NCBI RefSeq assembly: GCF_003018255.1
Contig: NZ_CP027440.1
From: Escherichia coli
Lineage (GTDB): Bacteria; Pseudomonadota; Gammaproteobacteria; Enterobacterales; Enterobacteriaceae
DNA length: 64,000 bases
Direction: 5' to 3' (one strand)
The notes beneath the pieces are model-generated. The model was not told where the DNA came from, ran no database searches, and worked only from the letters and a program-made list of their open reading frames with translations. Of this stretch, positions 43,459-58,531 are shown one piece after another. The position numbers and the translations under genes are program-made. The stretch's first letter is position 1. Each line of letters starts with the position of its first letter.

Positions 43459-43473
43459 ACCTGAATTGACTAC

Positions 43474-43500
43474 AAAAAAAGCCACGGAATAAACCGTGGC
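43474..43500 (-). terminator. rho-independent terminator after allE
   Basis: hairpin gccacgg..ccgtggc with U-run on minus strand. Confidence 0.55.
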
Positions 43501-43542
43501 AAAATCCAACATAGCTAAAAATAATCAGGCGAGTGGTATGAC

Positions 43543-44326
43543 TTAAATCTCTACGTCGCGGTTGCAATCTTTCGAGTAAATATAGCTGAACGCTTCACCA
43601 CGCCCTACGCCATAACCAGCCTGTAAAGAATAAGCGCCCATAAAGATGTAATCGCCTTTTTTCACCGGGATCCAGTTATTGTCGAGGTTATAAACCCCCT
43701 GACCGGAAAGAATATAGGCACCGTGTTCCTGAACGTGGGTTTCGATATAACCGTGGCTGGCACCTGGTGCAAAAGAGAGGATATGCATGTTCATATCAAA
43801 ACCTAACTCTTTGGGCAGAAAATCCAGCAGAATAACATCGTCCATGCCTTCATAATGAATGCGTTCCAGTTCGCTGGCATTGCCAGAAACCAGCCACGGC
43901 GCATGACCTTCTACCGGAATATAGCGACGCTTATATAAAAAGATTTGGCTGTCTTCGGCCTGGGCGTTAACAAACGTCATTAAGGAGCCTGGCGGGCAAT
44001 AAAGATAGCCACCTTCACTTAAGGTAAATGTTTTCCCTTCGGCTTTGGCAGTGATATTTCCAGAGATCACATACAGGAACGTTTCAATGCCTTCGCCACC
44101 GAAGCCCTGTTGGTTGCCGCCGTTTTGATGCAGTGTGACCAGATAATCAACAAAAGAGGCACCCAGCTTTGGCGTGGAGAGGATTGTCGCGTCACAATTT
44201 TCAAAGCCCGGAATAATATTTTTTACCAGACCGTCTGGTGTTAACAGTGCGAAATTACCGTGTTTCACAATCGCACGGTTAGCCAGTAAATCTTCGCGGT
44301 AACCGGTGACGTTATTTAAATATCCC
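43543..44326 (-). pseudogene. allE: S-ureidoglycine aminohydrolase gene separated from its start codon/RBS by island insertion
   Basis: cupin ORF; in-frame upstream codons ..KGYLNNVTGYREDLLANRAIVKHG.. preceded by a stop and no ATG; matching GGAG-N8-ATGGGATAT found 14 kb away at 58513-58530. Confidence 0.75.
44320..44326. repeat. attL core (ATATCCC)
   Basis: identical 7-mer at 58513-58519; outer flanks reconstitute intact allC-allE junction. Confidence 0.6.
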
Positions 44327-44453
44327 TTTTATCAAATAGTGTTTTTTGCTGTTTCATAATGTTTCAGGTCGTTCATTATGTTTTTGATTATCAACGGATT
44401 TGCCATTTTTCTTGTTTCAGCTTGTTTCACGTTGTAGCGCTTTGTGCAACGAT

Positions 44454-44479
44454 CGGTGTAGTTAATGGTGTAGTCAATT
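44454..44479 (+). repeat. 26-bp direct repeat cggtgtagttaatggtgtagtcaatt, left copy (candidate Int arm-type site)
   Basis: perfect copy at 58414-58439; flanked by TGTTTCA-like motif clusters. Confidence 0.55.
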
Positions 44480-44500
44480 GTGATGACCGGAATCAAAATT

Positions 44501-45730
44501 ATGAGCAGAGCACTTAACAAACTGAGTGACACACAGCTAAGGAAAATCAACGGCACACCCGCCCAAAAAACAGCCTTTCTTAATGACGGTGGAAACCTGA
44601 GCGTCAGGCATTCAACCAGCGGCCTTTTAACCTGGTATTTCACATACAGGGCCGGAACGGGAAGAGGGACACAACCTGAACGCGTTAAGCTGGGAAATTA
44701 TCCCGATCTGAGCCTGAAAGCAGCCAGGGAAAAAGCCGCACAGTGTCGCGCATGGCTGGCTGAGGGGAAAAATCCACGCTATGAACTGAATTACACCATG
44801 CAGGAAGCGTTAAAGCCTGCAACGGTTGGCGATGCGCTCACCTACTGGCTTGAGTCGTACGCAAAGGAAAAGCGCACAGATTACGAATCACTGAAAAGCC
44901 GGATCAATAAAAACATAATCATCAAAATTGGTGCTATGCCGCTGGATAAATGCGAGCTACGGCACTGGCTGGCCTGTTTTGATCAGGTGGCAAAGCGAAC
45001 ACCTGTTACTGCCGGATTCTTGCTACAGACATGCAAACAGGCGCTTAAATTCTGCCGTAGGCGGCGCTATGCAATCAGCAACGTTCTGGACGATCTGAAC
45101 GTGGCGGACGTTGGGAAAAAACCGGATATAAGCGAACGTGTCTTAAGCACCAAAGAACTGGGCGAGTTATTGCAGGCGCTGGATAAAAAAATATTTTCTC
45201 CTTACTACGTCGCGTTAATCCGCCTCCTGATTGTCTTCGGAGCCAGGACGGTAGAACTGAGGTTATCGGAGATCAGCGAGTGGGATTTTACCGAAATGCT
45301 ATGGACCGTTCCGAAGGAGCACAGCAAAACGAAGGTTGCAATATTCCGGCCCATACCGGAAGCGATCCTGCCGTTCGTCACGCGGCTGGTGGAGCAGAAC
45401 AGGCACACGGGCTTATTACTGGGGGAAGTGAAACAGGAGGCTAGCGTATCGCAGTACGGCAGATTAGCGCACAGGAGGCTAAAACACCTTCAATGGTCAT
45501 TGCATGACATCCGGCGCACCTTTACAACGATGCTGAATGATTTGGGCGTGGATCCTCACGTCGTGGAGCAGCTTACAGGTCATCAGATGCCAGGGATGCA
45601 ACGAGTCTATAACCACTCCCGTTATCTCGATGCGAAACGTGATGCGCTGGATATGTGGACGGAGCGGTTAGGGATACTGGCGGGAGCACATGAAAACGTA
45701 ACCACGCTACCAGTAACCAGAATAAAATAA
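44501..45730 (+). CDS. int: tyrosine integrase (P4-like)
   Basis: P4-type N-terminal arm-binding region and C-terminal catalytic residues (..HDIRRTF.., ..RVYNHSRY..); adjacent to attL; start taken at MSRALNKL (ORF opens at 44480). Confidence 0.9.
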   Translation: MSRALNKLSDTQLRKINGTPAQKTAFLNDGGNLSVRHSTSGLLTWYFTYRAGTGRGTQPERVKLGNYPDLSLKAAREKAAQCRAWLAEGKNPRYELNYTMQEALKPATVGDALTYWLESYAKEKRTDYESLKSRINKNIIIKIGAMPLDKCELRHWLACFDQVAKRTPVTAGFLLQTCKQALKFCRRRRYAISNVLDDLNVADVGKKPDISERVLSTKELGELLQALDKKIFSPYYVALIRLLIVFGARTVELRLSEISEWDFTEMLWTVPKEHSKTKVAIFRPIPEAILPFVTRLVEQNRHTGLLLGEVKQEASVSQYGRLAHRRLKHLQWSLHDIRRTFTTMLNDLGVDPHVVEQLTGHQMPGMQRVYNHSRYLDAKRDALDMWTERLGILAGAHENVTTLPVTRIK

Positions 45731-46094
45731 TTTTTTTCGTGTTTTTTCAGTATGCGCATACTGGATAAGTGCACAGATACAACGTGAAACAATGTGCAAC
45801 AACGTGACACAATCATGAACAAGAGGCCAAAAAGAATACAGATTTATAAGTTACTGATTTTTATTGCTCAACTGGTTTTTTATACATTAGCGAATTACGC
45901 GTTAAAGCGTGCGAAAAAAGGCATAAAACAAGATTTTATGCCTTTGTATTAACATGAATTTAAATGATTTTATCCTGATTATTCCTCTTTCTGTAAACCA
46001 TACGACATCAACATTTGCCATTCACCACACTAGCGGGAACAATACGACACAATAAGACACCTGATGACTCTTTAAGAAACGAAAGGGGGCAATA

Positions 46095-46283
46095 GTGTTA
46101 AGCACTGATCGGTTTATACGTGAAAAAGAATGCGAAAAGCTAACAGGCCTTAGCCGCTCATGCCGCTACCGCCTGGAAAAGGCCGGACAATTCCCATCAC
46201 GTCGTAAACTTGGCGGGCGTTCTGTTGGCTGGTCTTTATCTGAGGTTTTGGCCTGGAAGGATAGCTGCAAGGCAGTTCACTAA
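46095..46283 (+). CDS. alpA: AlpA-family transcriptional regulator / excisionase-like
   Basis: 62 aa, GTG start after SD aaggggg; ..KLTGLSRSCRYRLEKAGQFP..LGGRSVGWSLSEVLAW.. fits AlpA/MerR-type HTH. Confidence 0.7.
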   Translation: MLSTDRFIREKECEKLTGLSRSCRYRLEKAGQFPSRRKLGGRSVGWSLSEVLAWKDSCKAVH

Positions 46284-46526
46284 AAAGACTGGCGGCACAC
46301 AGTCGCCACACATCCACTAATACAGAGATATAACTATGAAGATTGAATATGCGCCCGAACGTGGGCGGGGATTCGTTCGCCCTGGTGAAACTGAAAAACA
46401 ACAAAATTGGGGTTTTTCAGGCATAAAAAAAGCGGCCCCGATATGGAGCCGCCTTTCTGAACAATTAACCTGCTGCGCCTTATGTGTATGTGATCCCAAA
46501 CATAAGCACGGGGATGATAGCCGCTA

Positions 46527-46724
46527 TCAGGCTGGTGGGCAATTCCTGTTTTGTCCGTATTGCGCCGCCATTTTCGCTCGTTCAGAGCGCGAATATTTTT
46601 TTAGAAACTCATCAAGGACAAAAGCGCATGGTGCGAATCTTTCTGATTCATGCTCGAGCGCCATATTTTCGTGCTCTCTGTTCGTTTTTTGCGATGGTGT
46701 ATCGCTTGATTCTTTGTTGGTCAT
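46527..46724 (-). CDS. hypothetical small protein downstream of Arc-like gene
   Basis: 65 aa hydrophilic ORF, same strand as Arc-like gene. Confidence 0.2.
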   Translation of the reverse strand: MTNKESSDTPSQKTNREHENMALEHESERFAPCAFVLDEFLKKYSRSERAKMAAQYGQNRNCPPA

Positions 46725-46781
46725 TGTGTGTACCTGTAAAGCAATGCGCCGTAGTACCTCACACCACGGCGCTGATAGTTT

Positions 46782-46973
46782 TTATCCTTTGGGGTCTATG
46801 CCGCGCCGCTTTAGTTCAGTGCGCCCCAACTCTTTAAGCCAGTTGGCTAGGCTTATGCCGTCGCTCTGTGCTTCTTTGTCGAATTGCTCTTTTAGCTCTG
46901 GAGAAATTCGCATTCTGAATTGTGGGGATTGCCCGTCCCCTTTAGGGCTTTTATCGCGTTTGATTGTTGACAA
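46782..46973 (-). CDS. Arc/MetJ-type ribbon-helix-helix protein (candidate repressor), antisense to neighbouring island genes
   Basis: ..SPQFRMRISPELKEQFDKEAQSDGISLANWLKELGRTEL.. matches Arc N-terminal strand plus helices; start codon uncertain (TTG with SD aggtgg). Confidence 0.4.
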   Translation of the reverse strand: MSTIKRDKSPKGDGQSPQFRMRISPELKEQFDKEAQSDGISLANWLKELGRTELKRRGIDPKG

Positions 46974-47107
46974 GTGGCCACCTATTAAATTAGCCTTTCT
47001 ATTGTTAGGTGGCCACCTTAACACAAGAGCACTTAAAAAAGCAAAGCCCCGCAAGTGCCATTACCACTCGCAGGGCTTCTAACCAACAACGTAAACGAGG
47101 AGCCGTT

Positions 47108-47308
47108 ATGGTTGCCGTAAATCATATACCACACCTTGTACACACACAAACTGCCTTTGTGTGGCGTTTTCTGGCCCTGAGTGCCGGAGAATCTCAAATC
47201 ATCCACGTAACCGCCTGGACGGAACGCGAAGCGCGTAACCGTTGCCCGTCCGGTTGTGTTGCTGTATTTGCCGCCCGTATTCGTCAGGGGGAAACCTATG
47301 CACAATAA
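47108..47308 (+). CDS. small protein resembling Icd-like cell-division inhibitors of P4-type satellites
   Basis: 66 aa from ATG with SD aggag; ..FVWRFLALSAGESQIIHVTAWTEREARNRCP.. (recalled family resemblance). Confidence 0.4.
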   Translation: MVAVNHIPHLVHTQTAFVWRFLALSAGESQIIHVTAWTEREARNRCPSGCVAVFAARIRQGETYAQ

Positions 47309-47528
47309 AACCACACCGGACGCAGCAGAAGAAGCAATGCAAATACTGATACGTGCGCTCGTTGATGTTACCCACATGGTGGAGATTATGGAGAGAAAAT
47401 CACAGTCGGAGCACGACAAAAGAAAACTTAAAACAATAAAAATAATTGCCAAAAACTCGCTGATAAAAGTTACAGACATCCTTAATGAGGACATTAAAAG
47501 AATAAGGGAGAAAATTTGTGATGCATAA
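47298..47528 (+). CDS. hypothetical protein (island accessory)
   Basis: 76 aa, AT-rich, SD ggggga, overlaps neighbours. Confidence 0.4.
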   Translation: MHNKTTPDAAEEAMQILIRALVDVTHMVEIMERKSQSEHDKRKLKTIKIIAKNSLIKVTDILNEDIKRIREKICDA

Positions 47529-47748
47529 AATCCCTTTTGAAGTATTAATCCACTCTGAAAACGCATTAATTAAAGCACGCGAAATGAATGCGTTGTTAAT
47601 TAAATTAATTGAAGTGCCGGAAGGTGGTGAGGAATCAGGTGTATTAATGTTTGCAGCCATTCAGACATTACTATCGCCTGTTATTGATGAACTGGATAAG
47701 GCAATGGCAATTCACGAAAATAATAACGCGCCCCACACCGGAGAATAA
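47518..47748 (+). CDS. hypothetical protein (island accessory)
   Basis: 76 aa, AT-rich, start overlaps previous stop. Confidence 0.4.
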   Translation: MMHKIPFEVLIHSENALIKAREMNALLIKLIEVPEGGEESGVLMFAAIQTLLSPVIDELDKAMAIHENNNAPHTGE

Positions 47749-47753
47749 AAATA

Positions 47754-48053
47754 ATGAAACTTAAATATTCTGGCTTAACTGCCAGTGGCAAAACTCGCAC
47801 TAAATTCATGCGCGGTGATATTTACCGCGACCAGTACGGCGGCACGGTAATGATTAAGGGCGTGGAGGAACGGCGCGTAACTTACCGCCGTGAAGGTTAC
47901 GAATATGATTGCGTGATGCCCGTTTATCAGTTCGACCGTGATTTTTCTCTGGTGCAGGCAGCGCAACGCAGCAAGCCCACCAGCAGGGAGAAAGCACGCG
48001 CCAATATTCAGGAAATAAAAAAGATGCTTAACGTATTCAGGGGTAAAAAATGA
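47754..48053 (+). CDS. hypothetical protein (island accessory)
   Basis: 99 aa basic protein, stop overlaps primase start. Confidence 0.4.
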   Translation: MKLKYSGLTASGKTRTKFMRGDIYRDQYGGTVMIKGVEERRVTYRREGYEYDCVMPVYQFDRDFSLVQAAQRSKPTSREKARANIQEIKKMLNVFRGKK

Positions 48054-49804
48054 AACTGGCACCGAACGTAAAACAGCAGTCACGCGGCATAAAACACAAA
48101 GAAACAGAAGTCATTATTTTTGCGGGTAGTGATGCCTGGTCACACGCAAAACAATGGCAGGAACATGACGCGCGTATGGCCGGAGATAATGAGCCTCCTG
48201 TGTGGCTTGGGGAGCAGCAGTTATCAGAACTGGATAAGCTGCAAATTGTGCCGGAAGGCAGAAAATCCGTGCGCATATTCAGGGCCGGATATCTTGCACC
48301 AGTAATGATAAAGGCGATTGGTCAAAAGCTGGCGGCGGCTGGTGTACAGGATGCAAATTTTTATCCTGAGGGTATGCACGGCAAGGAGGTGCAGAACTGG
48401 CGCGAATACCTGGCCCGTGAACGCCAGAATCTTTCTGATGGTCTGGTCATTGAGCTTCCGGTAAAGCAAAAGGCGCAACTTTCGCAGATGGCGGACAGTG
48501 AGCGCGCGCAGCTGCTTGCCGATCGCTTTGATGGCGTTTGCGTACATCCTGAAAGTGAAATTGTTCACGTATGGCGCGGCGGGGTATGGTGTCCGGTCAG
48601 CACAATGGAACTTAGCCGCGAAATGGTGGCGATCTATTCAGAGCACAGGGCCACTTTCAGCAAGCGCGTAATCAATAACGCCGTGGAAGCGTTAAAAGTT
48701 ATTGCCGAACCAATGGGCGAGCCGTCCGGCGATTTGCTGCCGTTCGCCAATGGTGCGCTTGACCTGAAAACGGGGGAATTTTCCCCGCACACGCCGGAGA
48801 ACTGGATCACCACGCACAACGGCATTGAGTACACGCCACCAGCACCAGGGGAGAATATCCGCGACAACGCGCCAAACTTTCATAAATGGCTTGAGCACGC
48901 AGCCGGAAAAGACCCGCGCAAGATGATGCGTATATGTGCCGCGCTGTACATGATTATGGCGAACCGGTACGACTGGCAGATGTTTATTGAGGCCACCGGA
49001 GACGGCGGGAGCGGTAAAAGTACATTCACACACATAGCCAGCCTTCTGGCAGGGAAACAGAACACGGTAAGCGCTGAAATGACATCGCTTGATGATGCTG
49101 GTGGACGTGCGCAGGTTGTCGGGAGTCGTCTTATCGTCCTGGCTGACCAGCCGAAATATACAGGCGAAGGAACGGGCATCAAGAAAATCACGGGCGGCGA
49201 CCCCGTGGAAATTAACCCGAAATATGAGAAGCGTTTTACGGCGGTAATCAGGGCGGTGGTGCTGGCTACCAACAATAACCCGATGATATTCACCGAACGG
49301 GCCGGAGGTGTGTCACGTCGTCGCGTAATTTTCCGTTTCGACAATATCGTCAGTGAGGCCGAAAAAGACAGGGAGCTACCGGAAAAGATTGCGGCTGAAA
49401 TCCCTGTCATTATCCGCCGATTGCTGGCGAACTTTACCGACCCTGAGAAGGCACGGGCTTTACTACTGGAACAGCGTGACGGTGATGAAGCTCTGGCAAT
49501 AAAGCAACAGACGGATCCGGTTATTGAGTTTTGCCAGTTCCTGAATTTTCTGGAGGAAGCACGCGGCCTGATGATGGGCGGCGGTGGCGATTCAGTGAAG
49601 TACACGACCAGGAACAGCCTTTACCGCGTCTATCTGGCGTTTATGGCATACGCAGGCAGGAGCAAACCGCTAAACGTGGCTGAGTTCAGCAAGGCCATGA
49701 AGCCAGCGGCGAAAGTTTACGGGCATGAATATATTACGCGAAAAGTTAAGGGAGTAACGCAGACCAACGCAATTACAACAGACGATTGCGACGCGTTTTT
49801 ATAA
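48050..49804 (+). CDS. primase-helicase replication protein (P4 alpha-like C-terminal NTPase)
   Basis: 584 aa, Walker A GDGGSGKST, Walker B-like LIVLAD. Confidence 0.85.
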   Translation: MKLAPNVKQQSRGIKHKETEVIIFAGSDAWSHAKQWQEHDARMAGDNEPPVWLGEQQLSELDKLQIVPEGRKSVRIFRAGYLAPVMIKAIGQKLAAAGVQDANFYPEGMHGKEVQNWREYLARERQNLSDGLVIELPVKQKAQLSQMADSERAQLLADRFDGVCVHPESEIVHVWRGGVWCPVSTMELSREMVAIYSEHRATFSKRVINNAVEALKVIAEPMGEPSGDLLPFANGALDLKTGEFSPHTPENWITTHNGIEYTPPAPGENIRDNAPNFHKWLEHAAGKDPRKMMRICAALYMIMANRYDWQMFIEATGDGGSGKSTFTHIASLLAGKQNTVSAEMTSLDDAGGRAQVVGSRLIVLADQPKYTGEGTGIKKITGGDPVEINPKYEKRFTAVIRAVVLATNNNPMIFTERAGGVSRRRVIFRFDNIVSEAEKDRELPEKIAAEIPVIIRRLLANFTDPEKARALLLEQRDGDEALAIKQQTDPVIEFCQFLNFLEEARGLMMGGGGDSVKYTTRNSLYRVYLAFMAYAGRSKPLNVAEFSKAMKPAAKVYGHEYITRKVKGVTQTNAITTDDCDAFL

Positions 49805-49809
49805 TTTTT

Positions 49810-50050
49810 TGTAAAAGCCCTCTACCCCATCTACCTGAATGAAGTAAACGCATATTATTCAACATGATAAGTGGGTAGAGGGCTAGGTAGAAGGCTAATA
49901 AAAGCTCTCTACCCCTTCTACCTGATTTTATCAGTTTCAGGTAGCAGGGTAGACGGCAGGTAGAGGAGCCCAAAAAGCTATCTACCCGCTGAAAGCCGCG
50001 CCATTACTGACATGATGAGCATTCGGGTAGATGGGTAGAGGGGGGGGAGG
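49810..50050. repeat. iteron cluster, putative island origin of replication
   Basis: at least 10 copies of GGTAGA/TCTACC-containing units in both orientations, e.g. cctctaccccatctacctga, ctctctaccccttctacctga, gggtagatgggtagaggg. Confidence 0.6.
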
Positions 50051-50082
50051 CACAACTAAAAACTTTTTAAACGAGGGGGGGG
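50040..50082 (+). repeat. two G8 homopolymer tracts just upstream of ORF 50090
   Basis: G8 at 50040-50047 and 50075-50082, the second 7 nt before the ATG. Confidence 0.4.
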
Positions 50083-50089
50083 AAAATAA

Positions 50090-50404
50090 ATGCGCATACA
50101 TCAAAATCACTTAACAAATATGCCAGCCGAAAACATGAATCAGGGGCGACAAATGACCAAAATTCGCAGAGACAGAACACAGGCAAAATATAAAGCGTTA
50201 GACATGACAGAGCTTTCCTTAAAGGTGGCAATCAAAGCGATAGACCACCACACACGGGCAGGATACGCGAAGGAACATCCCGACCTGATAAGCGCATTCA
50301 TGACCACGGCGGCGGCAAACTTTGCCACGTTGACAGAACGTGAGATTGCCGAAGCGGAACAGGTAACAACCATCAACGTTAAAACCGGAGAGGTGGAATC
50401 ATGA
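50090..50404 (+). CDS. hypothetical protein (island accessory)
   Basis: 104 aa ORF, stop overlaps SSB-like start. Confidence 0.35.
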   Translation: MRIHQNHLTNMPAENMNQGRQMTKIRRDRTQAKYKALDMTELSLKVAIKAIDHHTRAGYAKEHPDLISAFMTTAAANFATLTEREIAEAEQVTTINVKTGEVES

Positions 50405-50811
50405 CAGCACAGATAGCCGCTTACGGGCGGCTGGTGGACGACCCGCAGGTAAAACAGACCAGCAAGGGCACACCGATGACGCTGGTTCGTATGGCGGTAT
50501 CGCTGCCATGCAGCCAGGCACATGACGGACAGGCGACGTTATGGTTATCGGTTATCGCATTTGGCAAACAGGCCGATTTCCTGGCTAAACATCAAAAAGG
50601 CGATGTTGCCAGCGTATCCGGCACGATGCAGGTAAGCCAGTGGACCGGACAGAACGGGGAAACGCGGCGGGGGTATCAGGTTATTGCAGACAGCGTAATC
50701 AGTGCCCGCGCGGCACGTCCAGGCGGGAACAGACGCAAAACCACAGGCACACAGGGTAATCAGCCACCAGCGGGAGGCGATGACCCTTACGGTGACGGTA
50801 TTCCGTTCTGA
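50401..50811 (+). CDS. SSB-like single-stranded DNA-binding protein
   Basis: 136 aa, OB-fold-like N-terminus, Gly-rich linker, acidic tail ..DDPYGDGIPF like SSB DDDIPF. Confidence 0.55.
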   Translation: MTAQIAAYGRLVDDPQVKQTSKGTPMTLVRMAVSLPCSQAHDGQATLWLSVIAFGKQADFLAKHQKGDVASVSGTMQVSQWTGQNGETRRGYQVIADSVISARAARPGGNRRKTTGTQGNQPPAGGDDPYGDGIPF

Positions 50812-50821
50812 GGGGGTGACG

Positions 50822-51070
50822 ATGGTACATGACCGCATAGCGGAGGAACTCGAGGCAAAAGGCTTTTACCGGAGGGCGTCGGCGCGATGGGGTGAAGTCA
50901 TGCAACTGGTGGAGACAGACAAGGAACGGCATCAGGTTACGATGCGACGGCTGGAATGTTCCAGGAAGGCACAGAGGCCACCGGAGCCGCCAACGGAGAA
51001 CTACGCAGACCTGAGAAATGCAGTAAATCGCACTTACGCAGACATGGGGCTGAGCAAATTAGCAGAGTAG
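50822..51070 (+). CDS. PerC-family-like transcriptional regulator
   Basis: 82 aa from internal ATG with SD gaggggg; ..LEAKGFYRRASARWGEVM..TDKERHQVTMRRLEC.. (recalled PerC-like pattern). Confidence 0.4.
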   Translation: MVHDRIAEELEAKGFYRRASARWGEVMQLVETDKERHQVTMRRLECSRKAQRPPEPPTENYADLRNAVNRTYADMGLSKLAE

Positions 51071-51141
51071 GAATATCAGAACCACACCACGCAGCCGGAG
51101 CAATCCGGCTTTTTGTTATTTTTTGTAAATTATTTGTTCGT

Positions 51142-51158
51142 GGTTGTTCCACGTTGTT
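51142..51158 (+). promoter_or_regulatory. copy of TTGTT(C/T)CACGTTGT motif upstream of capsid operon
   Basis: gttgttccacgttgttcac; similar motifs near 44423, 45782 (inverted) and 58385. Confidence 0.35.
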
Positions 51159-51374
51159 CACTGAGCGGATCGGCATATTTTACCCGAACTGAATCATGAT
51201 TATTCTCGCCCGTGGTGCCAGGACGCTGGGGCCACTTTCCCGCCTGTTAATGTGCTCGCCAATATTCATTACCAGGCGGGAAAACGATCGGTGCGATTGC
51301 TGATTTCCTTATGAAAAACGGTTGAGTGTTTGCCGCGTCCTGGAGTTCCTTACTTAACCCCAGGACTTTTTTTT

Positions 51375-52532
51375 ATGCCGAGAATAATCGAATTACGCCA
51401 GCAGAAAACCGCCATTAAAAATCAGATGCGCGACATGCTGGAGAACGCTGAAAAAGAAAACCGCAGTCTTAACGATGCTGAGGGCGCAAAATTTGACGAA
51501 TTACGCGCTAAAGCTGAATCCCTCGATAAAGACATTTCCCGCCTTGAAGCCATTGCAGACGAAGAGCGCAGCAAGCCAGGTAAAAGCAGCCAGACCACTG
51601 ACCCCGCAGAACTACGCAGCTACATTCTGACAGGTGAAACCCGCGCATTAAGTACAGGCGTTCCCGCTGATGGTGGTTATACCGTTATCCCCGAACTGAA
51701 CACCGAAATCATGCGAATGCTGGCGGATGAATCCACCATGCGCCGCATCTGTACCGTGAAAAAAATCAGCAGCAACGAGTTTAAGCAGCTTGTTTCCGCT
51801 GGCGGTGCGACCGTTAACCACGGTGAAGAGGGTAAGGCACGCGAACAGACCAGCACCCCGCAGATTAACGAGGTGAGCATTAAGCTGTATCCGGTCTATG
51901 CGTACCCGCGCACCACACAGGAAATCGTGGATTTTTCCGATGTGGACATCCTTTCATGGCTGACGGGTGAGATTGGCGACACCTTCACGGAAACCGAAGA
52001 AAGCGATCTGGTTGTGGGCGACGGTGACAAAAAAGCAAAAGGTTTTTTATCCGTACCCCGTGCAGAGAAGAACGACAAAGAGCGTGATTTTGGTACGTTG
52101 CAGGTAATTAAACCTTCCGAATCTCTGGCGTGGACATCTGCGGACCCGCTGATCGACCTGAAATTTGCATTACGTAAAAAATACCGCAAAAACGCGGTCT
52201 GGGTGGTTAACTCCACGACGGCGGCAAAACTCCAGAAGGTGAAGAACGCGAACGGTGATTACATCTGGCGTGACCGTTTACAGGCGGGTGATCCTGATAC
52301 GTTGCTGGGCCTTCCGGTCGAATATCTGGAGTTTATGCCTGATAACGTTATTGCCCTGGGTGACTTCAAACGCGGTTACTACATTGTTGATCACGAAACA
52401 GGTGTTCGCACCAGACCGGACAACCTCACAGAGCCGGGCTTCATCAAAATTTTCACGCAGAAATATTTAGGCGGTGGCGTGGTGGATTCGAACGCGATCA
52501 AGATTCTGGAACTGCCACAGGACGACGATTAA
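51375..52532 (+). CDS. major capsid protein, HK97 fold, coiled-coil N-terminal delta domain
   Basis: coiled-coil N-terminus then HK97-like capsid core; start taken at MPRIIELRQQK. Confidence 0.85.
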   Translation: MPRIIELRQQKTAIKNQMRDMLENAEKENRSLNDAEGAKFDELRAKAESLDKDISRLEAIADEERSKPGKSSQTTDPAELRSYILTGETRALSTGVPADGGYTVIPELNTEIMRMLADESTMRRICTVKKISSNEFKQLVSAGGATVNHGEEGKAREQTSTPQINEVSIKLYPVYAYPRTTQEIVDFSDVDILSWLTGEIGDTFTETEESDLVVGDGDKKAKGFLSVPRAEKNDKERDFGTLQVIKPSESLAWTSADPLIDLKFALRKKYRKNAVWVVNSTTAAKLQKVKNANGDYIWRDRLQAGDPDTLLGLPVEYLEFMPDNVIALGDFKRGYYIVDHETGVRTRPDNLTEPGFIKIFTQKYLGGGVVDSNAIKILELPQDDD

Positions 52533-52571
52533 CAGCATACAGAAGGGGCTTAAAAGCCCCTTTAGTGTTTT

Positions 52572-53144
52572 ATGGGTGAAAAAATTATGAAGAGTATGGA
52601 AATCCGGTCATCGGAAATCACCACCAGCGGAGCCGGTACGCTGACGGGCTACGTTGTTCGCTGGGATAAGCTTTCAGAACTGTTATGGGGTGAGTTTTAC
52701 GAAAAATTCCAGCGGGGGGCGTTTACTGAATGGCTTGCGGCGGGTAATGACGTTCGCGGCCTGTATGAGCATGACCACAGCATGTTACTGGGGCGCACCC
52801 GTTCCGGCACGCTGAAACTGGAAGAGGACGAAACAGGGTTACGCTTTGAACTGACCCCACCGGATACCAGTACAGGGCGCGACGTTATCGAACTGGTTAA
52901 GCGTGGGGACATCTCGGGGATGAGCTTTGGCTTTCGCTCCCGTAAGGATGTATGGGATACCACAACAGATCCATGCGTGCGCACCGTGCTGGTGGCGGAA
53001 CTGTACGAAATTACCGTTACATCGGTACCGGCTTACCCCGATTCCGGCGTGGAGCTGGCCCGCCGTTCCCTGTATGAGCAGCACCCCGAAAAAATGCCGC
53101 GTGCGGATAATCGCCGCTGGTGGGTGGATTTAGCGGGGGTGTGA
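52572..53144 (+). CDS. prohead protease (HK97 gp4 family)
   Basis: 190 aa, ..LYEHDHSMLLGRT.. and ..ISGMSFGF.. Confidence 0.8.
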   Translation: MGEKIMKSMEIRSSEITTSGAGTLTGYVVRWDKLSELLWGEFYEKFQRGAFTEWLAAGNDVRGLYEHDHSMLLGRTRSGTLKLEEDETGLRFELTPPDTSTGRDVIELVKRGDISGMSFGFRSRKDVWDTTTDPCVRTVLVAELYEITVTSVPAYPDSGVELARRSLYEQHPEKMPRADNRRWWVDLAGV

Positions 53145-53145
53145 T

Positions 53146-54357
53146 ATGTGGCCTTTCAGAAGAAAAAAAGAGCAGCGCAGCATGACGCTTGATAAGTTTA
53201 TGGCGCTGGCTGGCACATCGAACACGGGGGCGGGTGAGTACGTATCATCGGGGACAGCGGAATCACTGCCCGCCGTCATGAACGCCGTGACGGTCATCTC
53301 TGAGGCGGTGGCTACCATGCCGTGTTACCTGTACCTGGTACGCAATGAGAAGGGGAAGGAGGCCCGCGAGTGGCTTGATTCTCATCCGGTCGATCACATC
53401 CTCAACGAGCGCCCGAACGCGTGGCAGACTCCCTACCAGTTTAAGCGAATGATGATCCGCCACTGCCTGTTAAACGGTAATGCTTATGCGGTGATTCAGT
53501 GGGGGCGTGATGGTTTTCCGGTGGCTTTACATCCTTACCCGCCGCAGTCGGTGAACGTGGAGCAGACAGGTGATCATAACTGGCGCTACTGCATCACTGA
53601 CGCCTACACCGGAAACACCCGCAACTATTTACCGTGGGAGGTTCTCCACCTTCGTTACTCCACGGATGACGGTTTTATGGGGCGCTCACCTGTAACCATC
53701 TGCCGCGAATCGCTGGGGCTTGGGCTGGCCCAACAACGCCACGGCGCGAGCGTGATGCGTGATGGCATGATGGCGGCAGGGGTTATCACGTCAGGCGAAT
53801 GGCTGGACGGCGTGAAGGGCAAACAGGCATTAGCCGCACTGGAACGCTACAAAGGGGCCAGAAACGCCGGAAAAACGCCCATCCTTGAAGGGGGGATGAG
53901 CTATCAGCAGCTGGGCATGAGTAATCAGGATGCCGAATGGCTGGCCTCCCGTCGCTTCACCATTGAAGACATCGCCCGAATGTTCAACGTCTCGCCGATT
54001 TTTTTGCAGGAATACAGCAACAGCACCTACAGCAACTTCAGCGAGGCAAGCCGCGCATTTCTCACCATGACGATGCGCCCGTGGCTGGCGAACTTTGAGC
54101 AGCAGATAAAAAACGCCCTGCTGGTGGCCTCGCCTGTACCTGGTATCCGGTATCAGGTGGAGTTTGACAGCGCGGACCTGTTACGGGCCACACCTGGCGA
54201 ACGCTTTGCCACCTATGAACGCGGCATCAAATCCGGCGTTATGTGCCCGAACGAAGCCCGCGAACGTGAAGGGCTGTCCCCGCGTGATGGTGGTGATGAG
54301 TTCAGCCAGGCATGGAAACAGGAAGTAAAAATCAGCGAGGGAGAAAAACCGGAATGA
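53146..54357 (+). CDS. portal protein (HK97 family)
   Basis: 403 aa, follows protease, precedes head-completion genes. Confidence 0.8.
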   Translation: MWPFRRKKEQRSMTLDKFMALAGTSNTGAGEYVSSGTAESLPAVMNAVTVISEAVATMPCYLYLVRNEKGKEAREWLDSHPVDHILNERPNAWQTPYQFKRMMIRHCLLNGNAYAVIQWGRDGFPVALHPYPPQSVNVEQTGDHNWRYCITDAYTGNTRNYLPWEVLHLRYSTDDGFMGRSPVTICRESLGLGLAQQRHGASVMRDGMMAAGVITSGEWLDGVKGKQALAALERYKGARNAGKTPILEGGMSYQQLGMSNQDAEWLASRRFTIEDIARMFNVSPIFLQEYSNSTYSNFSEASRAFLTMTMRPWLANFEQQIKNALLVASPVPGIRYQVEFDSADLLRATPGERFATYERGIKSGVMCPNEAREREGLSPRDGGDEFSQAWKQEVKISEGEKPE

Positions 54358-54692
54358 ACATAGGGCGACTGCGTGACAGGATAACGATTCAGACCCTGAA
54401 ACAGACCAGGGATATAACCGGCGAAATACTCGAAACGTGGGAGGACGGTCACACACTCTGGGCAAGCGTGAACATGGTCAGCAGCAAGGAGGCCATTTCA
54501 TCGGGCGCAGAGCTGGCGATTGGTACCGTAAGGATCTGGATACGGTACCGGAAGGACATCAACGCCACCTGCCGGATAAAGGTCAGTACGGGGCCGCTGG
54601 CGGGGCGTGTACTGAATATCATCGGGCAGCCGCTGCCGGATGCCGCCAGGACACGCCTTGAAATTCTTTGTCGTGAGGGCGCGGAAAAATGA
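54354..54692 (+). CDS. head-tail adaptor / head closure protein
   Basis: start MNIGRLRDRITIQ overlaps portal stop; ..IWIRYR.DI.. pattern. Confidence 0.65.
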   Translation: MNIGRLRDRITIQTLKQTRDITGEILETWEDGHTLWASVNMVSSKEAISSGAELAIGTVRIWIRYRKDINATCRIKVSTGPLAGRVLNIIGQPLPDAARTRLEILCREGAEK

Positions 54693-54985
54693 CAGAAGAA
54701 CTTATCACCCTGGAAGAAGTGAAACTCCATTGCCGCATCGATGGCGACGATGAAGACCAGTTAATCAGCGGATACATTGCCGCATCGCTTGAGGCGTGCC
54801 AGATACACATAGGCAGGCGCTTTGATGACGGGCTGGAGTTCACGCCAGCCATAAAGATTGGCTGCATGATGTTTATCGCTCACCTGTATGAAAATCGCCA
54901 GATTGTCGCGGATAACGCAAAAACACGCGTACCCATGACGATAGGCGCACTCTGGACGGCTTACCGTGATGTGGGGGTGTACTGA
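54689..54985 (+). CDS. gp6-like head-tail connector protein
   Basis: 98 aa; ..ITLEEVKLHCRIDGDDEDQLISGYIAAS.. Confidence 0.65.
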   Translation: MTEELITLEEVKLHCRIDGDDEDQLISGYIAASLEACQIHIGRRFDDGLEFTPAIKIGCMMFIAHLYENRQIVADNAKTRVPMTIGALWTAYRDVGVY

Positions 54986-55425
54986 TGCCGTGGCAACCAT
55001 TAAGACGATGCACAGAACCAGGCTGTAACAGGCGCGTTAAATCCGGCAAGTGTGAGGAGCACAGGCGGGCGGCATGGCGTGCAGAGGATGCCAGACGAGG
55101 ACACCGCCGCGCGCGTGGATATTCCAGACAGTGGGACAAATACCGCGCCATGTATCTGAGTAAAAACCCGTTATGCGTGCGATGCCTTGAGAAGGGGATA
55201 TATACGCCCGCCGTGGTGGTGGATCACATTATCCCGATTAATGGCGGTGATGATGTTCTCTTCTGGCCCGAATGGAACCATCAACCATTGTGCCAGGCGT
55301 GTCATAACCAGAAAACGAAATGGCTTGATCCGGCAACAAAAAGCAAGCGTGCCGCAGGTGGATTTCGTGAAGAGGAAGAACGGGCTGCTAACCGCAATAA
55401 CTGGATGTATGACGCTGATGAATGA
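54985..55425 (+). CDS. HNH endonuclease (packaging-associated)
   Basis: Cys-rich zinc motifs and ..VVDHIIPINGG..NHQPLCQACHNQKT.. HNH core, next to terminase. Confidence 0.85.
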   Translation: MPWQPLRRCTEPGCNRRVKSGKCEEHRRAAWRAEDARRGHRRARGYSRQWDKYRAMYLSKNPLCVRCLEKGIYTPAVVVDHIIPINGGDDVLFWPEWNHQPLCQACHNQKTKWLDPATKSKRAAGGFREEEERAANRNNWMYDADE

Positions 55426-55591
55426 GCGGGAACAAAACCGCCTTATCCGTGGACTTATAAGGCAGCGTGACGCATGGAAGACACAGGAAACAGGGCATAA
55501 AGATAAAGCGTCAGGACGCGCAGAACGCATCACAGCGAAGCGATTAACCGACCGTGACCGCGAGGTTATGGAATGTTTCCGCAATCGCTGA
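55409..55591 (+). CDS. possible small ORF overlapping HNH 3' end
   Basis: 60 aa basic peptide (MTLMNEREQNRLIRGL...), no recognisable domain. Confidence 0.2.
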   Translation: MTLMNEREQNRLIRGLIRQRDAWKTQETGHKDKASGRAERITAKRLTDRDREVMECFRNR

Positions 55592-55713
55592 TGAGGCTGT
55601 ATGACGGGGTGGGGGGCGTTTTCAGGACAAACCCGACCCCGCCGGGCACCGAACGCCTCCTCAAATTTTTATGCACGGGAATTTTTTGAAAAATAATCTG
55701 GCGAAAAATAAGC

Positions 55714-56070
55714 ATGGCAAGACCACCGAAAGCCCCCGCCTACCTGGATGATATCGCCGTGAAGCAGTGGCGGGAAAAATCTAGGCAGCTTGCGGAACGG
55801 GGAGACCTGACCCCCGCCGACTGGAGCAATCTGGAACTGTATTGTGTCAACTACTCCATTTACCGGAAAGCCGTTGCAGACCTTGCGGCGCGCGGGTTCA
55901 GCATTGTTAACAGTCAGGGCGGCGAGAGCAGAAACCCCGCATTAAGCGCAAAATCCGACGCTGAAAGAGTGATGATAAAAATGGCCTCTTTGCTCGGTTT
56001 TGACCCGATAAGCCGCCGTAAAAATCCACCGGAAACAGAAGAAGAGGACGAGCTTGACCGCCTGGAATAA
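55714..56070 (+). CDS. terminase small subunit (P27-like)
   Basis: 118 aa; ..DLTPADWSNLELYCVNYSIY..LLGFDPISRRK.. fits P27-family TerS. Confidence 0.7.
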   Translation: MARPPKAPAYLDDIAVKQWREKSRQLAERGDLTPADWSNLELYCVNYSIYRKAVADLAARGFSIVNSQGGESRNPALSAKSDAERVMIKMASLLGFDPISRRKNPPETEEEDELDRLE

Positions 56071-57715
56071 GTACGCAGAAGACGTAAAAACGGGCAAAAT
56101 TCCGGCCTGTAAACGGCTGAAACAGGCCGTTAAACGGTACTTTTCGGACCTTGAAAGCCCCCTTTACACGTTCGATCGTGAGGTTGTGGAGCGGTTTATT
56201 GCCTTTTCCAGGGTGTGCCCGCACGTAAAAGGGCCGATGCGTGGCAGACCCATTGAGCTGGAGCCGTGGCAGCAGTTCGCCTTTGCGTGCATCCTCGGCT
56301 TTAAGGTTAAGGCCACCGGACGGCGCAAATACACGAGCGCCTTTATCGAAGTGCCGCGCAAAAATGCGAAATCCACGACCGCCGCGATTCTGGCTAACTG
56401 GTTTCTGATTATGGAGAACGGGCAGCAGGATATTTACACCGCAGCGGTGAGCCGTGACCAGGCGCGGATCGTTTTTGATGATGCGCGTCAGATGTGCCTT
56501 TTATCCCGACCGTTACGCAGGCGGGTGAATATTCAGGCCCACAAGGTGATGCACCCGAAAAGCAACAGCCTGTTAAAGCCGCTGGCAGCAAAAGCGGCAA
56601 CCATCGAGGGAACAAACCCCAGCCTTTCCATCGTGGACGAATACCACCTACACCCCGATAACGGCGTTTATTCCGCGCTTGAGCTGGGGATGGGCGCACG
56701 TCCCGAAGGGCTGTTATTTGCCATTACCACATCGGGCAGTAACGTCGTTTCAACCTGTAAACAGCACTATGATTATTGCTGCCAGATCCTGGACGGCGAA
56801 GAGGTCAACGATTCAATTTTTGTGCTGATTTACGAGCTGGACGACGAAAACGAGGTTGATGATCCGGCGATGTGGATAAAGGCTAACCCTAACATCGATG
56901 TTTCCGTGGATCGTGAAAAACTGGCCTCAACCATCCAGAAAGCGCGGGGTATTCCGTCGCAATGGGTGGAGATGATGACAAAGCGATTTAATATCTGGTG
57001 CCAGGGGGCTACCCCGTGGATGGGTAACGGCGCATGGGCTGAGTGTGCCGGAACGTTCACGGAGGAAGATTTACACGGGCAGGAGTGTTACGCGGGGCTG
57101 GACTTATCATCAACCAGCGATATTTCCAGCGTGTGCTATGCCTTTCCGGTCGGTAAAAATATCATGCTGGTTTCCCGTCATTATCTGCCGGAGTTCCAGC
57201 TACAGAACCCCGCCAATAAAAACCGCGCTGTCTATCGCCAGTGGGCTAAAGCGGGCTGGATACGCACAACGCCAGGTGACTGCATTGATTACGACCGGAT
57301 CAGAGATGACATCATGCAGGATGCGGAGAAATTTAATATCAGGCTGGTGGGCTTTGATACGTGGAACGCCACGCATCTCAGGACGCAATTACAGGGGGCT
57401 GGTTTTGAGGTGGAGCCGTTCCCGCAAACCTACCTCAGATTCAGTCCGGCGGCGAAATCGTTCGAAGTTTTTGTTAACCGCAGGGTGATTGTGCATCGTG
57501 GCGATCCGGTGTTGTCCTGGTCGATGAGTAACGTCGTGATGCAGAGTGACGCGAACGCCAATATCAAGCCGAACAAGAAAAAATCACCGAACAAGATAGA
57601 CCCGAGCGTAGCGGCGCTGATGGCGTTTGGTACATTCCAGGCAGAGCATGAGGATTTTGCTTTTGATATAAGCGACAGCCACCGCCAGAAACTGGAAGAA
57701 TTTAGCGGGGTGTAA
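56054..57715 (+). CDS. terminase large subunit
   Basis: 553 aa, ATPase N-terminus and nuclease C-terminus, overlaps terS. Confidence 0.9.
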   Translation: MTAWNKYAEDVKTGKIPACKRLKQAVKRYFSDLESPLYTFDREVVERFIAFSRVCPHVKGPMRGRPIELEPWQQFAFACILGFKVKATGRRKYTSAFIEVPRKNAKSTTAAILANWFLIMENGQQDIYTAAVSRDQARIVFDDARQMCLLSRPLRRRVNIQAHKVMHPKSNSLLKPLAAKAATIEGTNPSLSIVDEYHLHPDNGVYSALELGMGARPEGLLFAITTSGSNVVSTCKQHYDYCCQILDGEEVNDSIFVLIYELDDENEVDDPAMWIKANPNIDVSVDREKLASTIQKARGIPSQWVEMMTKRFNIWCQGATPWMGNGAWAECAGTFTEEDLHGQECYAGLDLSSTSDISSVCYAFPVGKNIMLVSRHYLPEFQLQNPANKNRAVYRQWAKAGWIRTTPGDCIDYDRIRDDIMQDAEKFNIRLVGFDTWNATHLRTQLQGAGFEVEPFPQTYLRFSPAAKSFEVFVNRRVIVHRGDPVLSWSMSNVVMQSDANANIKPNKKKSPNKIDPSVAALMAFGTFQAEHEDFAFDISDSHRQKLEEFSGV

Positions 57716-57728
57716 TGAGGTCAGCAGC

Positions 57729-58010
57729 ATGACAGAAGCCGAAATACTGCGATTAATCCGCCGCGTCTCTGGAATCAGCCAGCAGGCTGACGAACAGACC
57801 ACGCAGCCGGACAGCGTGACAGCCGAAAATTATGCGCGTGTTGTTGCTGAGGTGATGCGCCGTGATGGTATCCAGCTTAATGATGCGGATATGCGCGACA
57901 TACGGATCCGCGTTCTTGAAATGCTGGCCTACAATCGCCGTGTAGAGATGTACAGGGAGAAAGAGAAAATTACGTACAACTGGAAGAAGCCGGAGCGGTT
58001 ACGGCGGTAA
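57729..58010 (+). CDS. hypothetical protein, last gene of island
   Basis: 93 aa ORF right after terL. Confidence 0.35.
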   Translation: MTEAEILRLIRRVSGISQQADEQTTQPDSVTAENYARVVAEVMRRDGIQLNDADMRDIRIRVLEMLAYNRRVEMYREKEKITYNWKKPERLRR

Positions 58011-58413
58011 CGTGTTGATTTAAAGGCGGCTCAATTTTGAGCCTCGTAACTGGTTGATATTTCCGGCAACCTCAATTTGAGGAGAGCGGAAACATCATCC
58101 CTCACATTCTGAATGGTCATAATGACCACGCAGGCCATCGAGGCAACCATAGCGATCATCGTTACGGTTGGAGCTTTCCGCCATTGGTGGAAAAGGTGCA
58201 CATCTGGATCATCATTACGGTGATCAAGGGTATGTAAAACCCACCAGCCTGATTAAAGGTTAACCGGAAAAAAAATCCGGTAGCCCCGTTATGGGGATCC
58301 CCATATCGACATTAACGCCCCTCATGAATTGGTGCGCTTCCCCCTGGAAAGATTACCCGCCTGTATATTTCTTGTGTCTATTTGTTCCACGTTGTTTCAT
58401 ACAGTGCACCGAA

Positions 58414-58439
58414 CGGTGTAGTTAATGGTGTAGTCAATT
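58414..58439 (+). repeat. 26-bp direct repeat, right copy (candidate Int arm-type site)
   Basis: identical to 44454-44479. Confidence 0.55.
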
Positions 58440-58512
58440 TGCGATTTTTGGCACTTTTTGTAGTGCGGGTTATTTAATTAAATCAATGTGTTATTGAAAA
58501 TAAGTTATAGAT

Positions 58513-58519
58513 ATATCCC
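58513..58519. repeat. attR core (ATATCCC) carrying native allE RBS and ATG
   Basis: minus strand reads TAA(allC stop)-GGAG-N8-ATG GGA TAT then island sequence. Confidence 0.6.
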
Positions 58520-58531
58520 ATTTATAACTCC

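Follow-up and report, generated by a model that had tools for sequence, protein, structure and literature searches.

Phage-inducible chromosomal islands (PICIs) include a capsid-forming class (cf-PICIs) of phage satellites that produce small capsids themselves and depend on a helper phage for tails only (bioRxiv 10.1101/2022.09.08.507074; PMC10085698). In Escherichia coli, published PICI sites include tqsA (EcCI042, EcCIK1516) and ycfD/roxA-phoQ (EcCICFT073) (PMC6092414), while the islands found at mutL in Streptococcus pyogenes act by parting the gene from its ribosome-binding site (PMC7192596). The latter arrangement belongs to what has been termed regulated gene integrity, for which tqsA is among the listed candidates, and the domain-disruption assay used in that work overlooks any site positioned after a start codon but ahead of the first domain (Mageeney et al., 2020; PMC7192596). 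Here, we analyze a stretch of 64,000 nucleotides of E. coli DNA (NCBI RefSeq assembly GCF_003018255.1, contig NZ_CP027440.1; hereafter the window), in which an island interrupts allE, the last gene of the allD-allC-allE operon, whose expression is anaerobic and activated by AllS (PMC12535856). From the sequence, we consider it very likely that a cf-PICI was integrated by its own integrase at an attachment site in allE through the core ATATCCC, and that allE most probably goes unexpressed for as long as the island is resident.

The evidence begins at the two junctions, whose features are the following.

43543..44325, minus strand: body of allE, codons 2-261 and the stop codon, otherwise intact, without start codon, Shine-Dalgarno sequence (SD) or operon promoter
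44320..44326, no strand assigned: copy of the att core at the integrase-proximal junction, ATATCCC; the minus strand reads AAG GGA TAT, with AAG replacing ATG
58513..58519, no strand assigned: copy of the att core at the allC-proximal junction, ATATCCC
58519..58531, minus strand: orphaned allE translation start, GGAG (58531-58528), 6 nt, ATG (58521-58519), running directly into island DNA
58532..59767, minus strand: allC, intact, 411 aa (NCBIfam NF006768, allantoate deiminase, 832 bits)

Read along the minus strand, the right junction passes from the allC stop codon TAA (58534-58532) through GGAG, the spacer TTATAA and the ATG to GGA TAT, and then enters the island. The left junction reads ...ACT ATT TGA TAA AAG GGA TAT TTA AAT AAC GTC..., after which 260 open codons extend to the allE stop at 43543; this body matches the ureidoglycine aminohydrolase family TIGR03214 (NCBIfam) at 342 bits, with a cutoff of 200. 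Two in-frame stops (TGA TAA) thus precede an AAG that stands in place of the ATG, and the in-frame ATG of an island frame farther upstream is closed off by the same two stops. The direct repeat common to both junctions, ATATCCC on the plus strand, is exactly 7 bp long with a mismatch on either side (the chance of two random window positions sharing a 7-mer is ~1.5e-4), and the inserted segment, including one core copy, measures 14,193 bp. When the outer flanks are joined, they yield a 261-codon open reading frame (ORF) beginning MGYLNN, 258 of whose 261 residues are identical to the solved E. coli YlbA/AllE structure (PDB 1RC6). The rebuilt 600-nt empty junction is 100% identical to that of the island-free strain DETEC-S792, in which RefSeq starts allE at the same ATG, 10 nt past the allC stop. 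Nothing interrupts the allC-allE junction in 5312 of the 5426 complete E. coli genomes either.

A sequence-only reading of the window had proposed much of this arrangement. It placed the island within the allD-allC-allE operon, with allE parted from its own ATG and SD, took GGGATAT as the crossover, and expected an uninterrupted allC-allE junction upon joining the flanks; the two junction sequences, the 7-bp core, the published operon structure (PMC12535856) and the match to DETEC-S792 each agree with it, and the start codon that it rebuilt from the flanks is the one used in that island-free strain. Its description of a left junction lacking an ATG and preceded by an in-frame stop is equally sound, as is the order TAA, GGAG, ATG GGA TAT that it gave for the right junction, but GGAG and ATG are 6 nt apart and not the 8 nt that it had counted.

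The reconstructed sites are those of a tyrosine integrase. The attB, GTTAT-TTAA-ATATCCC-ATTT-ATAAC, is a dyad-symmetric sequence of 25 bp in which a 5-bp inverted repeat, centred on the core, flanks the 7-bp overlap; it overlies allE codons 1-7 together with the spacer between SD and ATG. The reconstructed attP (...AAGTTATAGAT-ATATCCC-TTTTATCAAATAG...) is identical to attB only over these 7 bp and at scattered flanking positions. The G of the allE ATG falls within the overlap, but the base on its 5' side, a T in attB and an A in attP, does not; integration therefore necessarily yields AAG beside the allE body and leaves the ATG and SD on the allC side. The island elements that bear on recombination are listed below.

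44405..44479, plus strand: attP arm block on the int side, with GGTGTAGTYAAT twice in tandem (44455, 44467) and TTGTTTCACGTTGT (44422)
44501..45730, plus strand: tyrosine integrase, 409 aa (PHROG 1 integrase, E=7e-73)
46095..46283, plus strand: alpA, regulator/excisionase, 62 aa (Pfam Phage_AlpA, E=5.6e-18; PHROG 2790)
58365..58439, plus strand: attP arm block on the far side, the second 75-nt copy, with the same two motifs

The integrase possesses both an arm-binding domain (Pfam Arm-DNA-bind_3, PF13356, residues 8-95) and a catalytic domain (Phage_integrase, PF00589, residues 214-375), so that catalytic and arm-binding domains, a 7-bp identity between attP and attB, inverted core-type sites and arm repeats are all found at this locus. 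The arm blocks constitute a 75-nt direct repeat, 80% identical, lying ~80 bp inside each island end (44405-44479 vs 58365-58439). Each contains two tandem units of GGTGTAGTYAAT, whose four copies in the window are all in the arms (0.34 expected), and a 14-nt motif, TTGTTYCACGTTGT, is found five times (44422, 45779 and 45799 on the minus strand, 51144 and 58382), always within the island, against 0.04 expected: each att arm has one copy, two more lie in inverted orientation in the int-alpA interval, and the fifth precedes the capsid operon. The arm motifs are candidate arm-type binding sites for Int and AlpA/Xis, and TTGTTYCACGTTGT may serve AlpA, or some other regulator of the island, as a common operator coupling excision to late-gene control. 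With its predicted binding sites, the combination of arms and core is a standard attP architecture of the lambda/P4 type. As a separate observation, the arm repeat CGGTGTAGTTAATGGTGTAGTCAATT (44454-44479, 58414-58439) is identical at 25 of 26 positions to the sequence given as the "att site core" of EcCIDI14 (PMC6092414, Table S1; att gene "IS110 transposase"), and that entry may accordingly represent an arm repeat and not the crossover site.

In the mechanism that we propose, the cf-PICI's own tyrosine integrase would insert the island at the 25-bp dyad site over the allE start, with strand exchange across the overlap ATATCCC. The A contributed by attP would take the place of the T of the ATG, such that the junction at the allE body would read TGA TAA AAG GGA TAT, and the ATG with its GGAG would remain by allC, 14.2 kb from the allE body. 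Exact excision mediated by Int and AlpA would then restore allE.

As judged from the set and order of its genes, the island is a complete cf-PICI phage satellite. Its content comprises int, alpA, a primase, ssb, capsid, protease and portal genes, two connectors, HNH, terS and terL, and all 11 core components of a cf-PICI are found, which makes it "Type A." PHROG matches of the capsid, protease, portal, connector, HNH, TerS and TerL genes have E-values of 1e-35 to 1e-179. The island's size fits the 10-15 kb of a cf-PICI, int adjoins the left junction, and an AlpA-type regulator is present along with a primase module. No tail or lysis gene was matched among the scanned island ORFs (PHROG), and none is present in the RefSeq annotation of the closest relative, which is 96% identical. 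Among deposited phages none resembles the island, the best record reaching 14% coverage at 78% identity. Beyond int and alpA, the genes are arranged as follows.

47754-48053, plus strand: DUF4222-like gene (PHROG 285)
48050-49804, plus strand: D5-type primase/replicase (PHROG 864 DNA primase, E=7e-175)
50090..51070, plus strand: block whose first member is a small hypothetical gene
50401-50811, plus strand: ssb (PHROG 44)
~50822-51070, plus strand: gene matching transcriptional-activator families (PHROG 1231, 994, 10396)
51375-52532, plus strand: major capsid gene, in the capsid morphogenesis block 51375..54985 (PHROGs 10, 80 and 12, the capsid/protease/portal set)
52572-53144, plus strand: HK97-type prohead protease (same PHROG set)
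53146-54357, plus strand: portal (same PHROG set)
54354-54692, plus strand: head closure (PHROGs 25 and 40, the head closure/head-tail adaptor pair)
54689-54985, plus strand: head-tail adaptor (same PHROG pair)
54985-55425, plus strand: HNH endonuclease, in the packaging block 54985..58010 (PHROGs 144, 83 and 9, the HNH/terS/terL set)
55714-56070, plus strand: terS (same PHROG set)
56054-57715, plus strand: terL (same PHROG set)
57729-58010, plus strand: conserved hypothetical gene (PHROG 1561)

The activator-like gene at ~50822-51070 occupies the same position as a gene annotated by RefSeq as a PerC-family regulator in the closest relative. The interval between alpA and the primase is ~740 bp shorter in the window than in that relative, and the 248-aa ORF at 46336-47082 on the plus strand, which has no PHROG or NCBIfam match and lies antisense to small minus-strand genes (47033-47566) annotated in the relative, is probably spurious.

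Several features of the locus now stand between allE and its expression. The gene body lies 14.2 kb from the operon promoter, the island genes are mostly oriented opposite to it, and no island ORF can read into it because TGA TAA stands in frame directly upstream. The first canonical in-frame start is the GTG at codon 21, which is absent from most other carriers, where this codon is GTT; the next ATG is codon 117, and starting there drops the first cupin domain. Predicted pairing of the SD with the anti-SD amounts to -8.8 kcal/mol for the native TAAGGAG vs -1.5 for GTG21 and -2.4 for CTG15. The sequence-only reading had residual allE relying on an internal GTG or on read-through from the island, a suggestion that does not hold up well, as neither route looks viable in view of the two stops and the weak SD at GTG21. 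A scan of the island left end for promoter-like sites directed toward allE on the minus strand found none, with totals at chance level, and no terminator above chance was found there either. Conservation between E. coli AllE and its Enterococcus homologue 1SEF extends to residues 1-20, and the TIGR03214 family profile begins at residue 13. On this sequence evidence, a resident island very probably keeps allE silent, and we infer that the loss of AllE impairs the anaerobic use of allantoin nitrogen. On the other side of the island, no minus-strand terminator-like site was found between 58532 and 57600, and the allC transcript is predicted to run on into the island, antisense to the packaging genes.

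Several observations weigh against a silent allE or against a still mobile island. The exact attP junction expected of an excised form is absent from IMG/VR. The allE body in the window is a clean 260-codon ORF, which suits a recent insertion and equally well continued use. The Prokaryotic Genome Annotation Pipeline (PGAP) annotates the decapitated allE as a normal 247-aa coding sequence in 11 of the 12 carrier genomes (744 nt, CTG start at codon 15, no pseudogene flag; RefSeq loci L002, L003, L006, L007, L010, L012-L014, L016-L018), with only AST85, which has an extra frameshift, being flagged. The distant homologue 1SFN has merely 9 residues before the position matching E. coli residue 21, and by analogy an N-terminally shortened AllE might keep activity. 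Weak non-canonical initiation at CTG15 or GTG21 may also occur by way of an unrecognised outward promoter.

Taken together, the intact ORF and the PGAP calls raise the alternative that allE is still functional, with truncated AllE made from CTG15 or GTG21 on a transcript starting in the island left end. In the same direction point a minus-strand frame that is open through the island left end in all relatives and could mark outward transcription, and a SpyCI-encoded promoter reported to rescue expression in some streptococci (PMC3430984). Nonetheless, we deem this alternative unlikely: CTG15 and GTG21 are both devoid of an SD, GTG21 is replaced by GTT in most carriers, no promoter-like match faces allE, the family profile starts at residue 13 within a segment conserved as far as Enterococcus, and the allE remnant of AST85 is frameshifted. 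The 247-aa AllE of RefSeq is, in our assessment, an annotation artefact.

Two further features of this end of the island deserve mention in their own right. The minus-strand frame at 44332-44643 comprises ~100 open codons antisense to the 5' end of int and in frame with allE; its closing TGA TAA lies 3 nt short of the junction. It has no family match and no start codon that is consistently present; most related islands keep the frame open, and in genomes with the tqsA site occupied the annotation gives it as a 60-aa hypothetical protein. Outside the island, the small RNA STnc480 (Rfam, 84 bits, gathering threshold 72) lies at 43470-43536 on the plus strand, in the glxK-allE intergenic region beside a bidirectional terminator-like hairpin, and it is the only non-coding RNA that Rfam finds in the region.

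Insertion at allE is rare and recurrent. Both junctions are present in 12 of the 5426 complete genomes (0.2%), and the occupants include cf-PICIs with a primase (e.g., AST19, AST240, E203449), one cf-PICI that has a RepA helicase (TUM1886), and classical PICIs lacking terminase (LH50-c, AR_0085). All 12 other occupants in complete genomes are PICIs or cf-PICIs, a set that leaves 21 partial-match genomes outside it, and the insertion position is identical in 13 of 13 cases at the complete-genome level and in ~18 draft contigs. By the identities of flanking proteins, the carriers fall into about nine host-lineage groups and bear three island types. The chromosomal flanks of the window are 97-98.7% identical to those of other carriers (1.3-3% diverged) vs 99.9-100% identical to island-free DETEC-S792. 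Across public assemblies, 98 blocks hold the exact integrase protein of the window; the order ybbY-glxK-allE-int, with island ends 99.9-100% identical to those of the window, is present in most of the contigs that were read, and together these cover at least two further allE alleles. The attL junction is absent from 100,044 GTDB species representatives and was found in one metagenome contig. Because the carriers span several host lineages and different island types, the insertions are independent events, and they appear to be recent integrations by an active element, which the near-identical island ends in several host backgrounds suggest is still mobile. Two carrier islands are decayed: that of E300010 (L003) has an internal stop in ssb and has lost the block from the protease to terL, and that of AST85 (L011) has a truncated capsid gene. 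These two copies are probably immobile.

The integrase belongs to a widespread family, in that the int-attP module matches 1150 of the 5426 genomes at a coverage of at least 80%. Sister integrases with 87-93% amino acid identity are located in tqsA (core ATAACAGCA, 247 genomes), and others upstream of roxA (ycfD-phoQ; core GGACATATTT). Seeing that these relatives use tqsA and roxA-phoQ far more often, one might ask whether the integrase properly belongs at another site, for instance tqsA or roxA-phoQ, and landed in allE by an off-target accident. We find this extremely improbable. The attP overlap of islands at allE is ATATCCC, an exact match to allE, whereas islands at tqsA carry ATAACAGCA, and every one of the complete-genome cases and draft contigs counted above uses the same position. 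Moreover, the integrases at allE form a group of their own: the two that were compared share 12 residues within positions 94-142, at the end of the arm-binding domain and in the central/core-binding region, in which they differ from all three sisters compared. It is because of the matching attP overlap and this residue cluster that we favor a dedicated specificity for allE over an off-target accident.

The dedicated integrase does have a second target. In four contigs of draft assemblies, an identical integrase is found inside the small-permease gene of an accessory tripartite ATP-independent periplasmic (TRAP) transporter. The core at this site is again ATATCCC (L025 2820-2826; empty site L033 1294-1300), and the empty-site sequence, CTCATATAGATATATCCCATTTGCCAG, has ATATCCCATTT in common with the allE attB and ATAGATATATCCC with attP; the site shares 13 bp with attP on one side. 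Insertion truncates the small-permease gene near codon 128 of 158 and does not restore it; the junction occurs in 0 of the 5426 complete genomes. The integrase follows sequence, with no sign of sparing host genes, and a sequence-driven insertion of this kind weakens an adaptive reading of the insertion in allE.

Such an adaptive reading is suggested by the geometry of the locus. Under it, the island would be a reversible switch in the sense of regulated gene integrity, excision of which, under particular conditions, would turn allE and with it the efficient recovery of allantoin nitrogen back on, much as with SpyCIM1 at mutL. As in the streptococcal case, a PICI occupies the 5' end of an operon gene (PMC4689407, PMC3430984), its excision would rebuild allE exactly, a dedicated integrase subclade uses the site repeatedly, and the tqsA site of the sister clade is a listed candidate (PMC7192596). 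Two features expected of regulated gene integrity are also found: the inactivation of the gene, as predicted from the change of ATG to AAG, the removal of SD and promoter and the stops upstream, and the repeated use of one position by a tight integrase clade across three types of island and at least nine groups of host lineages. In spite of these parallels, we think a switch improbable. The site is occupied in merely 12 of 5426 complete genomes, the identical integrase also breaks the TRAP small-permease gene and leaves it broken, which has the look of sequence-driven collateral damage, the decayed islands of E300010 and AST85 seem fixed and not switching, the excised attP is not seen in IMG/VR, and no evidence for a regulatory role of the insertion in allE was found. 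We would also give little credence to the broader proposal that the allE-targeting lineage of PICIs and cf-PICIs switches allantoin nitrogen catabolism by spontaneous or helper-induced excision, as part of a clade habit of inserting at or near the 5' ends of genes (allE, tqsA, roxA).

The condition of the allantoin (ALL) gene cluster also speaks against a switch, since the cluster is often broken in E. coli without any island. For comparison, five island-free genomes were taken evenly down the ranking and one was picked separately; two of the five have ALL lesions (hyi::IS1; an allB stop) and a further genome lacks allC-allK. Damage observed in island-free genomes includes hyi::IS1, a nonsense mutation of allB in O157:H7 DEC4E, and, in WP5-S17-ESBL-11, a deletion from allE to purK. 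Among the carriers, 5 of 13 bear a second, independent lesion in the cluster, namely allW W139* in AST19, a stop at allW codon 336 in LH50-c, a stop at allC codon 234 in E300010, an allE frameshift in AST85, and an fdrA-ylbE deletion in AR_0085. We considered whether selection on this pathway is relaxed specifically in carriers and set the idea aside, as 5 of 13 against 2 of 5 island-free genomes is no demonstrable enrichment. The ALL cluster is thus often broken in natural E. coli, and the loss of allE is probably cheap. Given the rarity of the insertion, the decayed islands, the second gene-breaking target and the lack of an excised form in IMG/VR, a passive and tolerated disruption is more likely than regulation.

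With this locus, the repertoire of E. coli PICIs and cf-PICIs gains a chromosomal attachment site within allE, at the probable cost to the host of one enzyme of the anaerobic allantoin pathway. There is a practical consequence for annotation, in that pathway reconstructions relying on the 247-aa, CTG-start AllE of RefSeq would wrongly score carriers as allantoin-competent. The close integrases at allE, tqsA and roxA-phoQ, which are 87-95% identical and differ in residues 94-142 and in the attP overlap, offer a clean natural comparison for integrase retargeting. The insertion also exemplifies a type of case missed by published screens for regulated gene integrity, and the switch, if it were true, would be the E. 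coli counterpart of SpyCIM1 at mutL.

Set against the systems described at the outset, the island most resembles the cf-PICIs (prototype EcCIEDL933; Alqurainy et al., bioRxiv 10.1101/2022.09.08.507074; de Sousa et al., 2023, PMC10085698), with which it has in common a size of ~14 kb and the placing of int, alpA and primase at the left. It also shares with them the order of capsid, protease, portal and connectors followed by hnh, terS and terL, and the want of tail and lysis genes. Its insertion site differs from those compared, a comparison that does not extend to the six E. coli attB sites of the cf-PICI paper. Neither does allE appear among the eight E. coli PICI sites of PMC6092414 (Table S1), and a search of the literature for ylbA/allE as an integrase or PICI target, which did not cover the att-site table of the cf-PICI paper, returned nothing relevant; as far as we have checked, allE is a rare PICI/cf-PICI attachment site in E. 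coli that has not been listed before.

The PICIs of tqsA and roxA-phoQ have in common with it the integrase family (87-93%), the island-side attP flank TTTTATCAAnTAGTG... and the arm repeats, and the tqsA site also splits a coding sequence. They differ in their overlaps (ATAACAGCA and GGACATATTT vs ATATCCC at allE) and in the integrase cluster at 94-142, and occupancy of allE is ~20-fold rarer than that of tqsA (12 vs 247 genomes). Like the candidates for regulated gene integrity (PMC7192596), the insertion most probably inactivates a host gene, which it does not restore, and results from repeated independent events by a tight integrase clade; unlike theirs, its crossover falls past the start codon but ahead of the first Pfam match, the class that their assay misses. 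By analogy, the closest functional counterpart is SpyCIM1 at mutL (PMC4689407, PMC3430984), where a PICI-type satellite at the 5' end of a gene in an operon cuts that gene from upstream transcription and its ribosome-binding site, and excision restores it. There, growth-phase-dependent excision and a phenotype have been demonstrated; here, the start codon itself is destroyed, in another host and by another integrase. All told, the insertion in allE is what a known class of element ordinarily produces, here at a rare attachment site.

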